IMG/VR virus record: IMGVR_UViG_3300009111_000005
Location: 23,371-87,370 of that record
Source of the DNA: a virus
Lineage: Duplodnaviria; Caudoviricetes
Direction: 5' to 3' (one strand)
Length of the DNA: 64,000 nt
Positions 9,658 to 24,481 of the stretch are shown one piece after another; position 1 is the stretch's first letter; each line of letters opens with the position of its first letter. The notes beneath the pieces were generated by a model. The model did not search any database. It was not told the DNA's origin and saw only the letters and a list, made by a program, of their open reading frames with translations. Position numbers and translations under genes: made by a program.

Positions 9658-9730
9658 GATCCCATCGTCTAGAGGCCCAGGACATCGGCCTTTCACGCCG
9701 ACGACACGGGTTCAAATCCCGTTGGGATCG
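9658..9730 (+). tRNA. tRNA-Glu(TTC)
   Basis: Full cloverleaf; anticodon loop CTTTCAC; no encoded CCA. Confidence 0.95.
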
Positions 9731-9733
9731 CTC

Positions 9734-10111
9734 GGGGGTGAACTGGCTTCGACGTGGGTACAGAAACACGCAGGGCGAGCCGGGGAGGGTTACCGTTCTC
9801 CGTTAAAACATGGTGACAAACTCAACTGCCAACGACAACGTCGGCAAGCCGCTGGGGTTCGCCCCGGTAGCTCTCGCAGCCTAAGGGTTGCGACGTTCTG
9901 CGGATGACCTTTGCCTCGTGTGGTCATCCGTGGGGCGCAATCGAACGCGGGGCAAGCCGGTGTGAGCCCGTGAGCACTGGCCACAATACGGGAACCGACC
10001 CTCAGGTCAGTGTCCTCTCTGTCTGATGGGGCGTTATTCTCTGGAGAGACTACGCTCGTAGTCCTGCGTGTGAAGTACTTGCGGACCCGGGTTCGATTCC
10101 CGGCACCTCCA
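9734..10111 (+). ncRNA. ssrA: tmRNA (transfer-messenger RNA)
   Basis: GGGGGTG/CACCTCC acceptor stem, T-arm GGGTTCGATTCCC, tag ORF 9828-9884 ANDNVGKPLGFAPVALAA*. Confidence 0.95.
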
Positions 10112-10163
10112 AAATGAACTCCTTTTGCGGGTACAAGAATGTGTACCCAGAAAGGAGATTCGA

Positions 10164-10385
10164 TTGGAGATCAAATTGACGGTGTGGCCGGTCAATACGA
10201 CCGGGAAGAAGGACGCGAAGGAAAAGGACGGGGAACTCTCTCTGCTCGGTGCGTTGAAGGCAAACGAGGAGTGTGTTGAGTGTGTGCTGTTGTTGGACGG
10301 AAAGGAAGTGCAGCGGTTCGAGGTCAATGCGGAGGACCTCGAGAACGCCATGCGTACACTGCGCGCTTTCACGGCGCATCAGTAA
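10164..10385 (+). CDS. small hypothetical protein
   Basis: AAAGGAG RBS, TTG start, own promoter motif, terminator-like hairpin downstream. Confidence 0.65.
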   Translation: MEIKLTVWPVNTTGKKDAKEKDGELSLLGALKANEECVECVLLLDGKEVQRFEVNAEDLENAMRTLRAFTAHQ

Positions 10386-10448
10386 CGCACGGTGTGTACA
10401 TCAGTAGGGCCCTGTGCAATGCAGGGAGTTTTTTTGGTTCAAATAGTC

Positions 10449-10521
10449 GCTGGCGTAGCTCAGTCGGTAGAGCAGTTGCCTTGTAAGCAACTGGTCGCGG
10501 GTTCGATTCCTGTCGCCAGCT
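10449..10521 (+). tRNA. tRNA-Thr(TGT)
   Basis: Canonical cloverleaf; loop CTTGTAA. Confidence 0.95.
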
Positions 10522-10586
10522 CTGGTGGGCTCTGGATAAGTGATCGCGGCTCAACGGAGATGATGCCGGGTACCAGACCCACTTTT

Positions 10587-10658
10587 GGGGACATAACTCA
10601 ATGGGAGAGTGCCGGCTTTGCAAGCCGGAAGTTGCGGGTTCAACCCCCGCTGTCTCCA
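10587..10658 (+). tRNA. tRNA-Ala(TGC)
   Basis: Cloverleaf; G3:U70 pair; loop TTTGCAA. Confidence 0.95.
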
Positions 10659-10868
10659 CTGTGTCGTCGGGCTTCCAGCCTGCCGGCGCTGCGCCTCCTC
10701 ACTTCGAAGTCGGTGCAGTTTGGGCCGAGGGAGACGCCTTGTAGCACAACGTGTGCATCATTACGTGTGCGACAAAACTCCAAGGGCAGCAAACCTTGGT
10801 CGACAAATCGCACGCCTCTTGCTGGAGGAAACCGAAGAGAGTTCTCTTCGGGTGCACACGTTTTTCAC

Positions 10869-10940
10869 TGGGGTGTCGACAAGTGGAAAGTCACGGGATT
10901 TTGGTTCCCGCATTCGAAGGTTCGAATCCTTCCACCCCAA
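10869..10940 (+). tRNA. tRNA-Gln(TTG)
   Basis: Cloverleaf; loop TTTTGGT. Confidence 0.93.
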
Positions 10941-10944
10941 CACA

Positions 10945-11017
10945 GGGAGCGTAGCTCAGTTGGTAGAGCATCAGACTTTTAATCTGGCGGCCGAGGGTTC
11001 GAGTCCCTCCGCTCTCA
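10945..11017 (+). tRNA. tRNA-Lys(TTT)
   Basis: Cloverleaf; loop CTTTTAA. Confidence 0.95.
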
Positions 11018-11021
11018 CAGC

Positions 11022-11093
11022 GGTCGGTTGGCGCAGCGGAAGCGCACCTGCCTTACACGCAGGGTGCCGGGGGTTCGAATCCCTCACCGACCA
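11022..11093 (+). tRNA. tRNA-Val(TAC)
   Basis: Cloverleaf; loop CTTACAC. Confidence 0.95.
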
Positions 11094-11102
11094 CGGAATA
11101 GC

Positions 11103-11774: not shown

Positions 11775-12047
11775 ATGCGCTTTTTTTGTTTACATCGCGT
11801 AGAAGACGAGACGGGGGTGTCGGGTAACGGTGTTGTTGCGTGGGGTACACAGTGGCCCGACGGTTCTGTGTCGATGCGATGGCTCGGCAAAACACCCAGC
11901 TTCGTGAGCTACGAAGGGGGTATTGAGCACGTTCAAACAGTGCATGGACATCACGGCAAGACGATCATCATCTGGCAGGAATCATGTCGTTGCAAGGATC
12001 AGCATGACAGCTCTTCAAGTGGTTCAGGATCTTCCGTTCCCGGATGA
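11775..12047 (+). CDS. conserved small phage protein
   Basis: MRFFCLHRVEDETGVSGNGVVAWG...DGSVSMRW...HGHHGKT resembles a common phage family. Confidence 0.7.
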   Translation: MRFFCLHRVEDETGVSGNGVVAWGTQWPDGSVSMRWLGKTPSFVSYEGGIEHVQTVHGHHGKTIIIWQESCRCKDQHDSSSSGSGSSVPG

Positions 12048-13752
12048 CGCAGTCACGGAGACATTCGCGTTCATCGGACGGAAGGGTGCGGGTAAGACGT
12101 ACGGGGCAGGACGGTTCGTAGAAGAGCTACTCGAGATCAAAGCGCAGGTTGTGGTTGTCGATACGGTCGGTAACTGGTATGGGTTGCGCCTCAGCAAGAC
12201 AGGCAAACGCCAGGGCTACGACCTTCCTGTGTTCGGAGGCGAGCACGGGGATGTTCCTCTTGAGCGCACTGGCGGCGCACTCGTCGCGGATGTGCTCGTA
12301 GACCGGAACGTCTCTGTGGTGCTTGATCTGACTCTGTTCAATCAGTCTGCCCGTCAGCAGTTCATGGTGGACTTCGCGGAGCGTCTCTTTCATCGGAAGA
12401 CGCGTCAGCGTTCACCTATGCACCTTGTGCTCGAGGAAGCGCAGCGCTTGATCCCGCAGCAGACGCAAGGCAAAGGTGGGCTCATTCCTCGCCTCAAGGG
12501 CGCCATGGAAGAGATCGTCCGCATCGGCCGGAACTATGGCATCGGTTGTTCAATGCTTACCCAGCGGCCTCAGTCGGTCGACAAAGAGGTGCTCAATCAG
12601 ACTGAGTGTCTTGTGGTGTTCCAGACCGTGGGCACGCATGAGCGCCGGGCCATCAAGGAGTGGATCGTTGACAAGGGGCTCGATGTAGACCTCATCGATG
12701 AACTGCCTTCGCTTCCGGTGGGCACAGCGTACGTCTGGTCACCGCAGTGGCTCTCAACGCTGGGCAAGCACAAAGTGCTGCCGAAGCGCACCTACGACAC
12801 GTCTGCGACGCCAAAACTCGGAATGAAGCGGCTGCCGCCAAGGCCTCTTTCCCGTGGAGACCTATCAGAGCTTCAAACCGCGATGTCCGAGTCCATCACC
12901 AAGGCTGAAGAACACGACCCGAGTGCATTACGCCGTAAAGTACAAACGCTCACTGCGGAACTCGCAAAGCTTCGGGCACAAACGCCGGCCGAACCGAAGG
13001 TCGAGACACGCGTCAAAGAGAAGTCGGTGCTCACGGCCAGAGATAGAACGTTGCTTTCACGTTTGTGCAACGTCTTCATGTCTGAAGGAAACCGTCTCGA
13101 GCACCTGGTCGAAGGTATGCGTGGTGATGCGTTGGCTGCATCCAACATTGTGACACACGTACAGCAACTTTTGATTCCTGCATCGCCTACAGCGCTTGCT
13201 TCTCTTTCAGTGAAACCGCCTGTTCAACCTCCGATGAAACAGCCTCGTGCAGTGAAACCGGTGAAGCCTGACGGTGATGTGCAGCTCATCGGTAAGATGC
13301 GCGACATGCTTGCTGCTCTCGCAGCTACCACAGGTCACACGCTCAGCCGCAAGCAACTGGCCGTCCAAGTGGGCATGAGCGTGAAGTCGGGCGGCTTCAA
13401 TAACTACGTCGGCATGCTCTCTCGACAGGGGCTCGTCACGACTGCCAACGGAAACGTCGCGCTCACAGACACGGGGGCGTACCACGCAGAGGGCATCGAG
13501 ATCGCGCACACGCCTGACGAGGTTTTCGCGCTGTGGTTGCCCAAGCTCGTGGGCAAGACCAAGGACATTTTGACGTTGCTCTTCAAACACCCAACGCGAA
13601 TCTTCACACGCGCACAGGTGGCGGAAGAGGTCGGAATGAGCGTATCCTCGGGTGGCTTCAACAACTACGTGGGGATGCTCAGTAGACTCAATCTCATCGT
13701 CACAGGACACGGGTCGATGCGCCTCAACTGTGACGTGTTCAATCTTTCATGA
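12004..13752 (+). CDS. HerA/DUF87-like P-loop ATPase with tandem C-terminal winged helices
   Basis: Walker A GRKGAGKT, Walker B LVLEEAQ, GRNYGIG and TQRPQ motifs; duplicated SGGFNNYVGMLSR. Confidence 0.85.
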   Translation: MTALQVVQDLPFPDDAVTETFAFIGRKGAGKTYGAGRFVEELLEIKAQVVVVDTVGNWYGLRLSKTGKRQGYDLPVFGGEHGDVPLERTGGALVADVLVDRNVSVVLDLTLFNQSARQQFMVDFAERLFHRKTRQRSPMHLVLEEAQRLIPQQTQGKGGLIPRLKGAMEEIVRIGRNYGIGCSMLTQRPQSVDKEVLNQTECLVVFQTVGTHERRAIKEWIVDKGLDVDLIDELPSLPVGTAYVWSPQWLSTLGKHKVLPKRTYDTSATPKLGMKRLPPRPLSRGDLSELQTAMSESITKAEEHDPSALRRKVQTLTAELAKLRAQTPAEPKVETRVKEKSVLTARDRTLLSRLCNVFMSEGNRLEHLVEGMRGDALAASNIVTHVQQLLIPASPTALASLSVKPPVQPPMKQPRAVKPVKPDGDVQLIGKMRDMLAALAATTGHTLSRKQLAVQVGMSVKSGGFNNYVGMLSRQGLVTTANGNVALTDTGAYHAEGIEIAHTPDEVFALWLPKLVGKTKDILTLLFKHPTRIFTRAQVAEEVGMSVSSGGFNNYVGMLSRLNLIVTGHGSMRLNCDVFNLS

Positions 13753-13765
13753 CAAGGAGAAAACG

Positions 13766-14002
13766 ATGAGTGAAGCACCCGAGACCCAGGAAGAGACCAC
13801 CCCGGTGGAGAACAACGAATCGGCTGACGTGCTGGTCATCGCTTCGAAGGTGAAGGCCTACGTCAAGACACTGGAGCCCACAATGCGTGTGGCCGGTGAC
13901 TTCGCAGAAGGTCTGACGAGCGAAGTGCAGTACCTCATCCGACGAGCCATCAGTCGCGCTCGGTTGAACGGACGTGGCACGGTGCAGGCGCGGGACGTGT
14001 AG
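13766..14002 (+). CDS. bacterial-type histone-fold protein
   Basis: VLVIASKVKAYVK...ARLNGRGTVQARDV resembles Bd0055-type bacterial histones, including the RxTV..RD signature. Confidence 0.85.
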   Translation: MSEAPETQEETTPVENNESADVLVIASKVKAYVKTLEPTMRVAGDFAEGLTSEVQYLIRRAISRARLNGRGTVQARDV

Positions 14003-14003
14003 T

Positions 14004-14516
14004 ATGCCGCTCAAGCATCCTGCACTTCAGCAGCTCAGCTTGTTGCCCTACGTCACGCTCGATGATGCACGGCAGACTGTCGCGAAAGCTGCGTACGGGA
14101 AGAAGGGCACGGTGTGCCCGTGCTGTGCCCAGATCGCCAAGGTATATACGCGCAAGCTCAATTCAGCGCTCGCACAGTTCCTCATCTGGATCGTGCGTTC
14201 CTATGAGGACAATCCTCGCTGGATTCACATCCGCGAGTTCCCGATGATTCAGAATCGTCGCGGCGGTGGGGACTTTGCGAAGCTCGTGCACTACGGGCTG
14301 CTCGAGCAGCGACCGAACGAAGACGACAAGAGCAAACGCACGTCTGGGCAATGGAAACCTACCCAGAAGGCGAACGACTTCGTGCACAAGCGCATCAAGT
14401 TGCCCGAGTACGTGCAGCTCTACGACAACTATGTGCAGGGCTTCGCTACGAAAGAGATCGACATCGAGGCAGCGCTCGGGCAGCAGTTCGACTATCAGGA
14501 GCTGATGAGCCGATGA
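14004..14516 (+). CDS. conserved phage hypothetical protein (CPCC, wHTH-like)
   Basis: CPCCAQIAKVYTRKL and GDFAKLVHYGL. Confidence 0.7.
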   Translation: MPLKHPALQQLSLLPYVTLDDARQTVAKAAYGKKGTVCPCCAQIAKVYTRKLNSALAQFLIWIVRSYEDNPRWIHIREFPMIQNRRGGGDFAKLVHYGLLEQRPNEDDKSKRTSGQWKPTQKANDFVHKRIKLPEYVQLYDNYVQGFATKEIDIEAALGQQFDYQELMSR

Positions 14517-15423: not shown

Positions 15424-16029
15424 ATGAGCGCAACGAACCGCAAGCAGTCCGCGAAGGCCCACGACAAGTACCCCACGGACATTCGCTTGGTGCAGGCGGC
15501 GTTTGACCTGCTTACGGAGCACCATCCGCAGTTCGTTTCAAACGCGACACTGTTCCTGGAAGCGGGTGCGGGTCGTGGTCCATTCTGTGAGGTCGCGCGC
15601 ACGTACTGTCGCAATCTTCAGTGTCGTCCGCTCGGTGTGGAACTGCATCCGGACGTGAAGCGGTTCGACTATCAGCTCATGCAACAGGATTTCTTATGCT
15701 GGAAGTCGCCTATACGTTTTGATTTTCAAGCAACGAATCCTCCTTTCACCTACGCTGAAGACTTCATCCGCAAGGGTCTTGAGATGCTTCAACCGCAGGG
15801 CATGATGCTCTACCTCATGCGCATCGGTGTCGCTGCCAGTGTGGGACGTACCGAACTCTGGGAAGAGGTCATCAAGCTCAAGGAGCTGTGGCTGATTCGG
15901 CGAAGGCCAAATTTCAACACGACACGCTCGGGAAGCTCAGATGCGACCGAGTATGCCTACTTCCTCATGACACATCGCACTCGCGAGAACGCAAAAGTGC
16001 CCACCATCTTTCGCTGGCTCGATTGGTGA
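15424..16029 (+). CDS. amino (N6-adenine type) DNA methyltransferase
   Basis: FLEAGAGRG SAM-binding motif I and TNPPF motif IV. Confidence 0.85.
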   Translation: MSATNRKQSAKAHDKYPTDIRLVQAAFDLLTEHHPQFVSNATLFLEAGAGRGPFCEVARTYCRNLQCRPLGVELHPDVKRFDYQLMQQDFLCWKSPIRFDFQATNPPFTYAEDFIRKGLEMLQPQGMMLYLMRIGVAASVGRTELWEEVIKLKELWLIRRRPNFNTTRSGSSDATEYAYFLMTHRTRENAKVPTIFRWLDW

Positions 16030-18053: not shown

Positions 18054-18682
18054 GCGCACGAGACCGAACGCAACTTGCTTCACTAGGTTTTGCCGATCCT
18101 GACAAAAAGAATCCTGTGCACGACCTTGCGTGTCAATACATACATGAAAAGGATACACGGATACGGGTGTGTCAGAAACTCTTCGATAAGGATATGGGGG
18201 TGTATTCTTGGGTTCAGACTGAGTATCCGCTGTCCAAAGGGCAAGGTAGGTATAAAACAACCATTGGATTCCTAGATGTTGTTTTTCCATGGGGTATGGT
18301 TGCGTCGCCGGCACTCATGCGAAAAACAATTGCAGGACAATCCTGTGGTCTCATCGTTGTTGAAGTGAAAACAACGAAACCGTTAGTCATGGGGGATACC
18401 ATTCGTCAATTGCGTCTGTATCAAGAGTATTGGGTACCTGAGGACCTTGTCCGTAAATTCTGGGAAGAGACACGCCAGTGGGACGTGGGTGCACGTCGTC
18501 TTTGTGAGGCAACGTACTGGGTGCTCGCAACTACATTTCCTATTTCAAACGCTGAACGCGACTTTCTTTCCAAAGAAGGATTCCACCATGTATTTCTAGG
18601 TGATGGTTTTCAACATTGGATCGAAGCGCGTGAAGACAAGGCCTGCGCAGAAGAAAAGGAAAACTCGTGCGTATCAATCTAG
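18050..18682 (+). CDS. PD-(D/E)XK nuclease-like protein
   Basis: GFLDV...VEVKT...IRQLRLY. Confidence 0.65.
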   Translation: MSARDRTQLASLGFADPDKKNPVHDLACQYIHEKDTRIRVCQKLFDKDMGVYSWVQTEYPLSKGQGRYKTTIGFLDVVFPWGMVASPALMRKTIAGQSCGLIVVEVKTTKPLVMGDTIRQLRLYQEYWVPEDLVRKFWEETRQWDVGARRLCEATYWVLATTFPISNAERDFLSKEGFHHVFLGDGFQHWIEAREDKACAEEKENSCVSI

Positions 18683-20118
18683 CCGGCTTCAACATCGACC
18701 GTGACGTCCTCCAGCAACACGTGCCCGCAAATGACCCTCGGGCCTTCAATGCGCTGACTCCCGAAACTCTCTCCGCCGCCTACGCCCGCATCAGCCGGGC
18801 TCCTGAGCCCGTCGATGAATTACGGCGTAAAGCCGCGGAGGATGTGGCAGCGGCGAGGACATCGAACGAGAAGATCGTCTTCGGCTACGGGCACGCTTCC
18901 GTGGCTGAACACGCGGTCTTCAACTTCGATCTCATCGACGTGTCGCGTCTCGCGATTGAAGCTGTTGAGCACGCACGCTTGTGCTCGTACACGGAGAAGT
19001 CGCAGCGCTACGTCACCTTCGATCGAGACAAGGTCGAGTACGTGGTCCCTGAAGAGATCATCGAGGTGGGTCTTCGGAACGAGTTCATGGACTTCATCAA
19101 GGAGACCCACGACCAGTACCACTTCATTCTTGGACGCATCAAGGATCAGGAGCGCCCACAGGGAGGCACTGCGCAAGAAGACGCGAGGTACGTGTCTACG
19201 CTCGCGGTAGCTGGTCAGCTCGGGATGACGTGCAATGCACGCAACCTCGAGACACTCATTCGTCGCTTGGTCGCGCATCCCCTCGAAGAAGTGCGCGGTA
19301 TCGGTCAGACGCTGTATGTGCGCGCCAAAGACGTGGCTCCGTCCTTGCTCAAATACGCTACGCCGGAACCCTTGCGGTTGGCACAGACCAGCAAAGTGCA
19401 GGAGGCATTGCGGCTTCAGTGTGCGGGACTCTTCGCAGCCCCCGCAGAACGAGTCGAGTTGCTCGCGGCCACGGGCAACATGGAGGGCGGGAGCGGGGGA
19501 GACCACATCATCTTATCGGCTCTGGTGCACCAGGTCTCGCGCGTGCCCTTCGACATGTGCTTTGCGACTGTCGCACGTCTTTCTCCCGAACAGCGCAAGG
19601 GACTCATGCTGAACGTCCTCTCCACGATGGACGTCTACAGCGCCGCACCGCGCTGCTTCGAAATGTGCGATCTGACCTTTGAGCTGATCGTGTCCGCGAG
19701 CTGTTTCGCGCAGCTCAAACGGCATCGGATGCTCACACTGCTTCCTCAGATGTACGACCCCTCACTGGGCTACACGATCCCTGCGTCTGTTGCGCAGGAC
19801 GAGCCTGCCCTCGAACGGTTCAAGGCGGTGATGAGGACAGCGGAGGCGTTCTACAAGAAGCTGGCCCGGGTGTGCAACGAATCTCTCGCCGAGTATGTGC
19901 TCACCCAGGCGCATCGTCGCCGAGCGCTCGTGAAGATGAATGCGCGCGAAGCCTACGCGTTCAGCCGCCTCCGCGAAGACAAGCACGCTCAGTGGGAAAT
20001 TCGTGAAATTGCACAACAAGTGATGGGATTGGCGCGACGCGTGATGCCTCTGACGATGGCGCTGGCGTGTGGAAAGGACGCCTTCGAAGAATGGCGTAAA
20101 CAAGTACTTTCCTGTTGA
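18667..20118 (+). CDS. thyX: FAD-dependent thymidylate synthase, tandem-domain form
   Basis: GHASVAEH, SYTEKSQRYV and a second-domain QLKRHRM; 483 aa. Confidence 0.9.
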   Translation: MRINLAGFNIDRDVLQQHVPANDPRAFNALTPETLSAAYARISRAPEPVDELRRKAAEDVAAARTSNEKIVFGYGHASVAEHAVFNFDLIDVSRLAIEAVEHARLCSYTEKSQRYVTFDRDKVEYVVPEEIIEVGLRNEFMDFIKETHDQYHFILGRIKDQERPQGGTAQEDARYVSTLAVAGQLGMTCNARNLETLIRRLVAHPLEEVRGIGQTLYVRAKDVAPSLLKYATPEPLRLAQTSKVQEALRLQCAGLFAAPAERVELLAATGNMEGGSGGDHIILSALVHQVSRVPFDMCFATVARLSPEQRKGLMLNVLSTMDVYSAAPRCFEMCDLTFELIVSASCFAQLKRHRMLTLLPQMYDPSLGYTIPASVAQDEPALERFKAVMRTAEAFYKKLARVCNESLAEYVLTQAHRRRALVKMNAREAYAFSRLREDKHAQWEIREIAQQVMGLARRVMPLTMALACGKDAFEEWRKQVLSC

Positions 20119-21886: not shown

Positions 21887-21961
21887 GGGTCGGTAGCCCA
21901 ACTGGAAGCTGGCGCCAGCCTCAGGAGCTGGTTGTTGTGGGTTCGAATCCCTCCCGACCCA
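21887..21961 (+). tRNA. tRNA-Leu(CAG), short variable loop
   Basis: Cloverleaf; loop CTCAGGA; 5-nt variable loop; A73. Confidence 0.85.
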
Positions 21962-21965
21962 CCGC

Positions 21966-22052
21966 GGAAGGTGCCCATAAGGCAGGCCGGGCCTGCGGCT
22001 GACTGTAGATCAGCTCCCGCACGGGCGAGTGGTTCGACTCCATCACCTTCCA
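21966..22052 (+). tRNA. atypical tRNA-Tyr(GTA)
   Basis: GCTGA/TCAGC anticodon stem with loop CTGTAGA; long variable arm; 8-bp acceptor and 4-bp T stem; enlarged D region. Confidence 0.75.
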
Positions 22053-22058
22053 CCGTGT

Positions 22059-22133
22059 GCCGCGGTAGCCCAAATGGAAGCTGGCGCCAGGCTAAGGACC
22101 TGGAGGTTGCGGGTTCGAATCCCGCCCGCGGTA
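22059..22133 (+). tRNA. tRNA-Leu(AAG), short variable loop
   Basis: Cloverleaf; loop CTAAGGA; A34; A73. Confidence 0.85.
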
Positions 22134-22137
22134 CTTC

Positions 22138-22211
22138 GGGTCGGTAGCCCAACCGGAAGTGGCCCCCGTCTCAAAAGCGGGCATATGCGGGTTCGAATCC
22201 CGTCCGACCCA
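22138..22211 (+). tRNA. tRNA-Leu(CAA), short variable loop
   Basis: Cloverleaf; loop CTCAAAA; A73. Confidence 0.85.
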
Positions 22212-22508
22212 CTGAAGGGGATAAGGAACGGCGCCGCCTGCGCGAGAACGTTGCAGGTCCCCGTCTGACTGAAACAGTCGTTGAGTAGCCTCTCGGCCGG
22301 CGCCATCACGATTATAGCTTGCCGGCAGGATCTCATCTTCGCTGGTGACGCTGATCATCTGGCTGTACCCGTACCCACCATAGAAAAAAGGCGCTGTGAC
22401 CGTTTCCGATCAGAGCGCCTACCTTCGCCTCACGTTTCCGTTCAGCGAACAGACTACATGGTACAAGAAGGGTTCTGAGACGTCAACACTTTTCTTTAGG
22501 CCCATAGG

Positions 22509-23818: not shown

Positions 23819-24481
23819 TTAGCAGTACGAGTCTCTGATGGTTGCGGCAACGCGGTCCCAGTCGGGCATGTCGTTGATGGGGTCCCAGATGAGCCGCGTG
23901 ACCTTGACCGCGTGTGCCCAGGGAAGGAGGCCGGTTTCCGCTTCATGGAGTAGCTCCTGGTAGCCAGTCCGAAGATCCCGCAGATAGGACAGCGGAACTT
24001 TGACCTCCGCTTCACGGTTGCGAGCTTTCATTCGTTCGTAGGCCGTCTCAGGTTGCACATCGAGGAAGATGAGCTTGGTGGGCGGCATGAGTGACGTGCA
24101 AGCGTCGAGGTAACTGTCTTCGTAGATCTGCCAGAAGTCGGGATCGATGTTGCCCGCTTTCATGTGCAGCTTTGCGAAGACCCTGTCTCCACTGATAGAA
24201 CGGTCAAGAATCGCTCCTTTGTTGCCCCCGATACCAGTGGCTTCAACAGCGGCGAGTTGTTGCATGAGCTTGCGTTTGTTGAGCAGGTGCATCTGCATCG
24301 GGAAGGCGTAGTACTTGGGATCGTCATAGAACTTCTTGAGGTAGGGGTTGTCATCGGCGGGTTCTTCGACGACACGGAGGCCTAGTCTTTGGCCGATTTC
24401 ACGACAGAACGTTGTCTTACCTGCACCAATGATGGCTTCGACCCAGAGAAGCGGTAGGCGGCGCGCGTTGGGATTGATCAC
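23819..24481 (-). CDS. deoxynucleoside kinase
   Basis: P-loop EAIIGAGKTT, DRS motif and RNREAE lid. Confidence 0.92.
   Translation of the reverse strand: MINPNARRLPLLWVEAIIGAGKTTFCREIGQRLGLRVVEEPADDNPYLKKFYDDPKYYAFPMQMHLLNKRKLMQQLAAVEATGIGGNKGAILDRSISGDRVFAKLHMKAGNIDPDFWQIYEDSYLDACTSLMPPTKLIFLDVQPETAYERMKARNREAEVKVPLSYLRDLRTGYQELLHEAETGLLPWAHAVKVTRLIWDPINDMPDWDRVAATIRDSYC

Follow-up and report, generated by a model that had tools for sequence, protein, structure and literature searches.

A putative face-to-face histone with an acidic N-terminal tail encoded by a tailed phage

The locus described here raises the question of whether a tailed phage encodes a genuine histone, to which class of prokaryotic histones such a protein would belong, and what a strongly acidic tail in front of a basic core could mean for DNA binding. 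It lies in a 64,000-nucleotide stretch of DNA (the window) from an IMG/VR virus contig of 87,370 bp, estimated to be ~49% complete. An earlier note, made from the letters of the window, had described a virus-encoded minimal histone of Bd0055 type with a 20-aa acidic leader. The translation quoted there matches the open reading frame exactly, and the viral origin is borne out by the IMG/VR virus contig and by the phage-family genes around the histone. The features of the locus are as follows.

9658-11094 and 21887-22212: nine tRNA genes and a complete one-piece tmRNA (tmRNA at 9734-10114, Rfam RF00023, 158 bits)
12004..13752, + strand: HerA/FtsK-like P-loop ATPase whose C-terminus has two winged-helix-like repeats; gene preceding the histone in its operon
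13754..13759, + strand: Shine-Dalgarno sequence AAGGAG, 6 nt before the histone ATG, read directly
13766..14002, + strand: histone gene, 78 codons plus TAG, named from homology to solved alpha3 histones and from its predicted fold
13766..13828, + strand: acidic disordered N-terminal tail, residues 1-21, defined by pLDDT, charge table and homolog composition
13829..13999, + strand: predicted histone fold, residues 22-78 (alpha1 26-36, loop 1 37-45, alpha2 46-67, loop 2 68-74, truncated alpha3 75-77)
14004..14516, + strand: downstream neighbour of unknown function, phrog_2693 (E 2.7e-31), 96% identical in contig L002
14830..15420, + strand: HD-domain dNMP phosphatase (phrog_318, 8.8e-49)
15424..16029, + strand: DNA methyltransferase (phrog_799, 2.8e-29)
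18667-20118, + strand: long ThyX (483 aa), in the + strand block
23819-24481, - strand: thymidylate-kinase-like gene that follows the + strand block

The histone gene is real and conserved, and it has a strong ribosome-binding site. It runs from the ATG at 13766 to the TAG at 14000-14002 and gives a protein, P0001, of 78 aa; its ATG lies 13 nt past the upstream stop codon, and the downstream gene begins 1 nt past the TAG. The identical protein is present on 10 contigs, the longest of 93 kb, and eight close homologs share 68-90% identity with it. In the related contig L002 the 1.75-kb upstream gene is missing and the upstream sequence is unrelated, but CAAGGAGAAAAC and the ATG are conserved, and identity with the window resumes precisely at CAAGGAGAAAAC-ATG. 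Since the Shine-Dalgarno sequence and the ATG are thus kept across an indel breakpoint, the translated form is the long one, with the tail. Between the window and L002 (a single pair), dN/dS is 0.27 over the histone core and falls to 0.13 in alpha1 plus loop 1.

Histone fold and class

When P0001 was searched against all PDB sequences with phmmer, only prokaryotic alpha3 histones were matched: HTkC from Thermococcus kodakarensis (9F2C, E 1.1e-10), HLp from Leptospira perolatii (9QT0, 5e-7) and HBb/Bd0055 from Bdellovibrio bacteriovorus (8CMP and 8FVX, ~1e-4). A profile of the nine closest homologs left this order unchanged (8e-15, 2.4e-10 and 1.6e-7, respectively), and 137 relatives at E<1e-3 emerged when 1.84 billion representative proteins were searched exhaustively with HMMER. 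Pfam hmmscan with E up to 10 gave only Phage-MuB_C (E 0.081, 13.3 bits vs a cutoff of 25), which was treated as noise; P0001 has no score above the gathering threshold for CBFD_NFYB_HMF (PF00808) or DUF1931 (PF09123), and no significant match was obtained in the PHROGs scan. The Pfam miss reflects models that are too distant and does not count against a histone fold.

Structure prediction, one of the checks proposed in the earlier note, gave a histone fold. The AlphaFold2 model, built from an 86-sequence alignment, has pLDDT values of 88-96 over residues 21-78, and DSSP assigns to it an alpha1 helix at residues 26-36, an alpha2 helix of 22 residues (46-67) and an alpha3 of just three (75-77). 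Its top nine Foldseek matches are all HTkC, HBb or HLp (rmsd 1.0-1.4 A), with HTkC superposing at 1.0 A over 56 columns with a probability of 1.00, and VIA-align Z scores are 7.3-7.5 for these three histones vs <=5.7 for TAFs and for archaeal and eukaryotic nucleosomal histones. The alpha3-truncated histones of Schwab et al. (2024) have an alpha3 of only 3-4 residues and an alpha2 that does not reach its nucleosomal length; the predicted alpha3 of P0001 has three residues, and its top structural matches are all alpha3 histones. The RD clamp, RxTxxxxD, is present as R70-G-T72-V-Q-A-R-D77, of which R70, T72 and D77 are invariant in the clade alignment (A2) and T72 in 86 of the 86 rows of the family alignment A1. 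Residues 22-78 are therefore almost certain, on the predicted model and the homology together, to adopt the histone fold of the prokaryotic alpha3 type. The earlier assignment of a minimal histone fold in the same superfamily as Bd0055 is upheld by the phmmer and profile matches to solved alpha3 histones.

The nearest relatives outside the clade of P0001 are tandem histone-fold doublets of ~97-190 aa (P0010-P0017 and P0019-P0028; E 1e-12 to 1e-8). In those that were checked (P0010-P0017 and P0019), both halves carry the Arg/Asn/Arg pattern discussed below, except for one half of P0011.

Membership of the Bd0055 type is a different matter. The 'bacterial dimers' are told apart from face-to-face (FtF) histones by the missing Arg and Asn at logo positions 48 and 52 (PMC11390915). 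In FtF histones these two residues join two dimers, and in HLp they correspond to R49 and N53, which act together with R55; the crystal structure of HLp shows an interface network of R49, S52 and N53 against R55, T61 and F63 (PMC12701072). When P0001 was aligned by HMMER (phmmer) onto the HLp residues named in PMC12701072, its R64, N68 and R70 fell on R49, N53 and R55, and all three are invariant in the clade, as is D77 (A2). The remaining interface residues of HLp, S52, T61 and F63, are replaced by L67, R76 and V78. HBb has Ser and Asp at the positions of R64 and N68.

A quick maximum-likelihood tree was built from 89 short sequences. With 52 of its 86 forks open, it resolves little, and only two well-supported statements are taken from it: the nine clade members form one group with a support of 99 on a long stem, and HBb falls into a different subclade (SH-aLRT 94) that excludes the phage clade and whose members mostly lack the Arg/Asn pair. 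Comparison of monomer structures does not separate the two classes, since FtF histones and HBb are tied against P0001 (VIA-align Z 7.3-7.5).

Three other classes were considered and rejected. P0001 ends at V78, one residue past D77, and has no C-terminal helix; the 'phage histone' class of Schwab et al., also called VTTH, is ruled out by the retained RxTxxxxD and the absence of the C-terminal tetramerization helix. The ZZ histones, which carry an N-terminal C4 plus C2H2 ZZ-type zinc finger, are ruled out since residues 1-21 contain no Cys or His. The bacterial-dimer (HBb/Bd0055) class was set aside as well, with the FtF Arg and Asn present and P0001 placed outside the HBb subclade.

The order of E-values, the presence of R64, N68 and R70, the tree placement, the retained clamp motif and the absence of a C-terminal helix and of a zinc finger lead us to read P0001 as an FtF-type rather than a Bd0055-type alpha3 histone. 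The Bd0055-type label of the earlier note thus does not hold: HTkC and HLp outscore HBb by sequence and by profile, R64 and N68 are present, and the protein lies outside the HBb subclade. HTkC (9F2C) and HLp (9QT0-2), which are 45% and 40% identical to P0001 (rmsd ~1.0 A), share with it the truncated alpha3, the RxTxxxxD clamp and the Arg/Asn/Arg network. They differ in having Lys or Thr after the clamp Arg where P0001 has Gly, and in a tail of no or few residues where P0001, a phage-encoded protein, has an acidic one of 21 residues. HBb/Bd0055 (8CMP, 8FVX, 9EZZ) shares the SKVK and GR-x-TV-x-ARD motifs and the monomer fold (Z 7.5), but it differs at the R64/N68 pair, belongs to a separate subclade and is the weakest of the solved relatives (E 1e-4).

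The conserved trio R64, N68 and R70 suggests that P0001 probably forms a tetramer. The foremost alternative is an HBb-like dimer that bends DNA to compact it, as HBb does, with no tetramer involved. P0001 and HBb belong to the same superfamily, the HBb structures fit the model as well as the FtF ones do (Z 7.5; rmsd 1.4 A), P0001 differs from HLp at three of six interface residues, and viral Bd0055-like histone-fold proteins exist (PMC13681535). Against these points, HBb is the weakest match of the three solved relatives in both searches (1e-4 vs 1e-10 by sequence, 1.6e-7 vs 8e-15 by profile), the 'bacterial dimer' class lacks by definition both the Arg and the Asn that P0001 possesses (PMC11390915), and P0001 stands outside the HBb subclade. 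We regard such a dimer as possible, but unlikely.

DNA-contact surface and acidic tail

HLp contacts DNA through A13, S14, K15, K17 and K21 of alpha1, T27 and G29 of loop 1, and T56 and T57 of loop 2 (PMC12701072). The corresponding residues of P0001 are A26, S27, K28, K30, K34, V42, G44, G71 and T72, so that seven of the nine are identical; the two differing positions are T27 (V42 in P0001) and T56 (G71), the latter placing a Gly where the RKT motif usually has its Lys. All seven matching residues are invariant in alignment A2, together with R64/N68/R70 and R70-D77. With a net charge of +5 over residues 22-78 and a low dN/dS, this is the pattern that would be expected of a DNA-binding histone.

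The tail presents the opposite picture in charge. Residues 1-21 contain six Glu, one Asp and no Lys or Arg (net charge -7), are rich in Thr, Pro, Asn and Gln, and are predicted to be largely disordered (AlphaFold2 pLDDT <50 for residues 1-3 and 6-17). The acidic leader claimed in the earlier note is therefore present, and the conservation of Shine-Dalgarno sequence and ATG in L002 indicates that it is translated. The tail charge of -7 offsets the +5 of the core and gives the whole protein a pI of 5.08, where the family median is 8.99; tail charges of -6 to -7 occur, among the 86 singlets of the family, in the clade of P0001 only. Seven of the eight close homologs carry a 20-21 residue acidic tail of drifting sequence, for example MEENTTTNPETNETPASDNE, and the eighth has a short tail of eight residues. 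Acidic composition is retained in all eight long-tailed clade members. The only DNA pair, with L002, shows six non-synonymous changes and one synonymous change in the tail and no visible purifying selection. Composition, not sequence, thus seems to be what is conserved, and it is from this conserved composition that a role for the tail is suggested. Cellular homologs from MAGs have mostly short tails, of 3-7 residues in about half of them when first-ATG starts are taken.

The tail codons (13766-13828, compared with 10001-10063 of L002) also have a dS of 0.08, from one synonymous change, vs 0.78 over the remaining codons. A constraint on translation initiation or a recent recombination could be behind this; the comparison is a weak one from a single pair.

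In the model, A26-S27-K28 mark the end of alpha1 from which the tail emerges; this end is a point of DNA contact in HLp, and for this reason we infer that the tail may compete with DNA in cis. Acidic tails are found beside DNA-binding surfaces in other proteins, such as the C-terminal tails of HMGB1, SSB, T7 gp2.5 and T4 gp32. As in P0001, a disordered acidic tail there adjoins a basic surface that binds DNA, and in cis it could act as a competitor of the DNA; the folds are unrelated, however, and those tails are C-terminal whereas that of P0001 is N-terminal, so the likeness is one of analogy only.

The same features could be read in another way, with the histone fold serving mainly as a dimerization scaffold and the tail mimicking DNA to trap host DNA-binding proteins, or with the protein mixing with an FtF histone of the host and so poisoning its chromatin. 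DNA mimics are common among phage proteins, P0001 as a whole is acidic (pI 5.1), the acidity of the tail is conserved while its sequence drifts, and the point at which the tail emerges is the DNA-binding end of alpha1. A pure scaffold, however, would have no need of the DNA-contact positions or of a +5 core under purifying selection (dN/dS 0.13 in alpha1 plus loop 1). No host histone is known, and the closest cellular homologs found are less than 50% identical. A decoy of this kind appears to us quite unlikely.

Genomic setting and host

The histone gene belongs to a tightly packed operon for DNA and nucleotide metabolism, within a + strand block (~40-21,750) of nucleic-acid and nucleotide-metabolism genes that includes radical-SAM-like, RNA-ligase-like and HNH endonuclease genes. 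It lies outside the - strand block beyond ~25 kb, which holds the few recognizable virion genes (baseplate/tail-hub-like and protease-like). The cluster of phosphatase, methyltransferase, ThyX and thymidylate-kinase-like genes hints that the phage reshapes the thymidine nucleotide pool or modifies its DNA. A promoter and terminator scan found no + strand site between 12251 and 15779, and with no interrupting site from 12.25 to 15.78 kb the histone is probably co-transcribed with its neighbours; over the whole scan, sites were no more frequent than in shuffled sequence. A second histone-fold gene, as a heterodimer partner, was searched for with the family profile, and none was found in the 87-kb record, itself ~49% complete.

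The upstream ATPase was identified from sub-cutoff matches to Pfam DUF87, AAA_10 and TrwB, from phrog_2666 (9e-19) and from HerA chains in the PDB (1e-6 to 1e-5). A SGGFNNYVGMLSR motif occurs twice in its C-terminal repeats. The gene shows a clean 1.75-kb presence/absence pattern: L002 and L003, two JGI contigs that are syntenic with the window over >20 kb and carry the histone in the same slot, both lack it, and the ATPase is therefore not an obligate partner of the histone. In contig L022, part of an unrelated 200-kb element of 39% GC, an ATPase of 27% identity whose C-terminus is winged-helix-like in the same way is nevertheless located 2 kb upstream of a histone gene, with RuvC-like and Vsr-like genes (named by eye) between the two.

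L022 and L021 are opposite ends of this element, the 199,919-bp contig Ga0265292_1000080 (39% GC), and have near-identical gene sets; a terminal repeat or a circular overlap could account for the duplication. A histone-fold gene of 63 aa is present at either end (893-1084 in L021 and 9989-10180 in L022), in which the clamp Arg is replaced (GKKKTLGAED), and the nearby genes are, by eye, RuvC-type resolvase-like and Vsr/DUF559-type endonuclease-like.

The location of the gene also bears on whether P0001 could be a virion-packaged protein that condenses the genome in the capsid or is injected with the DNA. Coating of the genome was among the roles proposed in the earlier note, and some phages do package internal DNA-binding proteins. 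The histone gene, however, is part of the + strand metabolic and nucleic-acid block (40-21750) and not of the - strand tail-hub/protease block, and the protein is net acidic. Packaging in the virion is accordingly very unlikely. Less credible still is a chance open reading frame or a mis-called start, with the gene not real or its tail untranslated: the frame is short, Pfam and PHROG matches are absent and the longer database form of HLp did have a mis-called start (PMC12701072), which is why the start of the phage gene had to be checked, but a strong, correctly spaced Shine-Dalgarno sequence precedes the first ATG and is conserved with it across the indel breakpoint, eight of the nine clade members (query included) begin 20-21 residues ahead of the fold, no Shine-Dalgarno sequence stands before the internal GTG at codon 22, and homology and fold evidence contradict a chance frame, so that this explanation retains practically no weight.

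Since the phage record contains a tmRNA, its host is a bacterium. The 3' ~60 nt of the tmRNA, the conserved part and the only part that aligned (~80-84%), gave BLAST matches in 185 of 301 sampled Myxococcota vs 35 of 401 Pseudomonadota genomes, a comparison that covers these two phyla and counts one unpublished genome (G200) among the 185. Over its whole length, the tmRNA is 56-57% identical to two Myxococcota tmRNAs vs 48-53% to two Pseudomonadota ones. The phage tag peptide has 18 residues, ANDNVGKPLGFAPVALAA, and begins with ANDNV, as does the tag of one sampled Myxococcota genome (ANDNVELALAA). With two phyla sampled and only the conserved 3' end aligning, these comparisons weakly favour Myxococcota over Pseudomonadota. 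The nearest cellular homologs of P0001 found are 47-48% identical and come from MAGs labelled Myxococcales, Chlamydiae and Deltaproteobacteria; the scan (alignment A2) was limited to two peptide patterns, so that 47-48% is a lower bound. A host lineage with histones of its own, hinted at in the earlier note, is one possibility. In a Myxococcota MAG (L031, JBHJGZ010000003.1), an ORF ending at ~6200 encodes a Cys/His-rich N-terminal domain followed by a histone fold, similar to the ZZ type of Schwab et al.

Proposed role and place among viral histones

Taken together, we favour the reading that P0001 is an FtF-type phage histone that bends or wraps DNA, is made during infection and has its binding moderated by the tail, and give this statement as a whole a probability of roughly 0.6. 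Production during infection is a guess from gene order. The protein would dimerize and, judging from the R64/N68/R70 network, probably tetramerize into a ring as in HLp. DNA would then be bound independently of sequence by the N-terminal end of alpha1 (A26-S27-K28, K30 and K34) and by the bridge of loop 1 and loop 2 (G44 and T72), and ~50-60 bp could be bent or wrapped, as has been proposed for FtF histones. By analogy with other acidic tails, that of P0001 most likely folds back on the basic surface and tunes or gates DNA binding in cis; gated binding would need a high local concentration, a partner or particular DNA. Replicating phage DNA and the host nucleoid are the candidate targets, again guessed from gene order.

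The roles suggested in the earlier note, genome coating or remodelling of the host nucleoid, are plausible for P0001; the pI of 5.1 for the whole protein, unusual for a DNA-coating protein, argues against simple bulk coating. A bolder extension, which we hold to be quite unlikely, is that P0001, by virtue of its acidic tail, acts on chromatin as a switch or as an antagonist. As an auto-inhibited histone, P0001 would load onto DNA only once a partner displaces the tail; the adjacent HerA-like translocase, which recurs near a histone gene of the unrelated 200-kb element, is a candidate for this partner. As an 'anti-histone', P0001 would enter mixed assemblies with the FtF histones of a bacterial host that has them and remove these from the nucleoid.

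Phage-encoded alpha3 histones as such are not new, having already been described (Schwab 2024; Liu 2025). Alpha3 histones occur in some bacteriophages (Schwab et al. 2024), and mining of IMG/VR, the resource from which the window was also drawn, yielded 84 bacterial-like histone-fold proteins, with a wider profile search giving 289 non-redundant histone-fold proteins in Caudoviricetes; the clusters include viral FtF and Bd0055-like forms (Liu et al., preprint 2024, hLife 2025; PMC13681535). The 'phage histones' of Schwab 2024 (A0A2E7QIQ9 type), which are the VTTH of Liu et al., resemble P0001 in being alpha3 folds of tailed phages, but they have a long C-terminal tetramer-forming helix and lack RxTxxxD, and P0001 is the opposite on both counts. 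Closer to it are the viral FtF histone-fold proteins, whose N-terminal tails have 5-40 residues and are enriched in Lys (Liu et al.; PMC13681535). P0001 shares with these the FtF-like fold, the origin from an IMG/VR tailed phage and a tail length (21 residues) within the published range, but its tail, with a net charge of -7, contains neither Lys nor Arg.

A tblastn search of 50,697 GenBank phage records gave no match, and hence no cultured phage in that set has a close relative of P0001. Scans of viral contigs, whether by P0001 itself or by the alignment of its clade, likewise gave none, with records near that of the window possibly falling outside the scan. A broader alignment found two further IMG/VR contigs with histones of the Arg/Asn/Arg pattern, one of them beside a RecA-like gene. 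In L043 (3272-5843; IMGVR_UViG_3300023444_000001), a 63-aa histone-fold gene with the pattern RAKANGRKT is flanked by a 204-aa gene and a RecA-like gene, apparently a recombination module.

The only new feature of P0001 is its strongly acidic N-terminal tail, described by neither Schwab 2024 nor Liu 2025. Biochemical tests of phage alpha3 histones are reported in neither study, and both base the class on prediction. The clade of P0001 offers a convenient test case in this respect, with a protein of 78 aa, a clear FtF signature and a tail charge opposite to that of the published viral FtF tails, and its setting in a DNA- and nucleotide-metabolism module rather than a virion module points to a role during infection.
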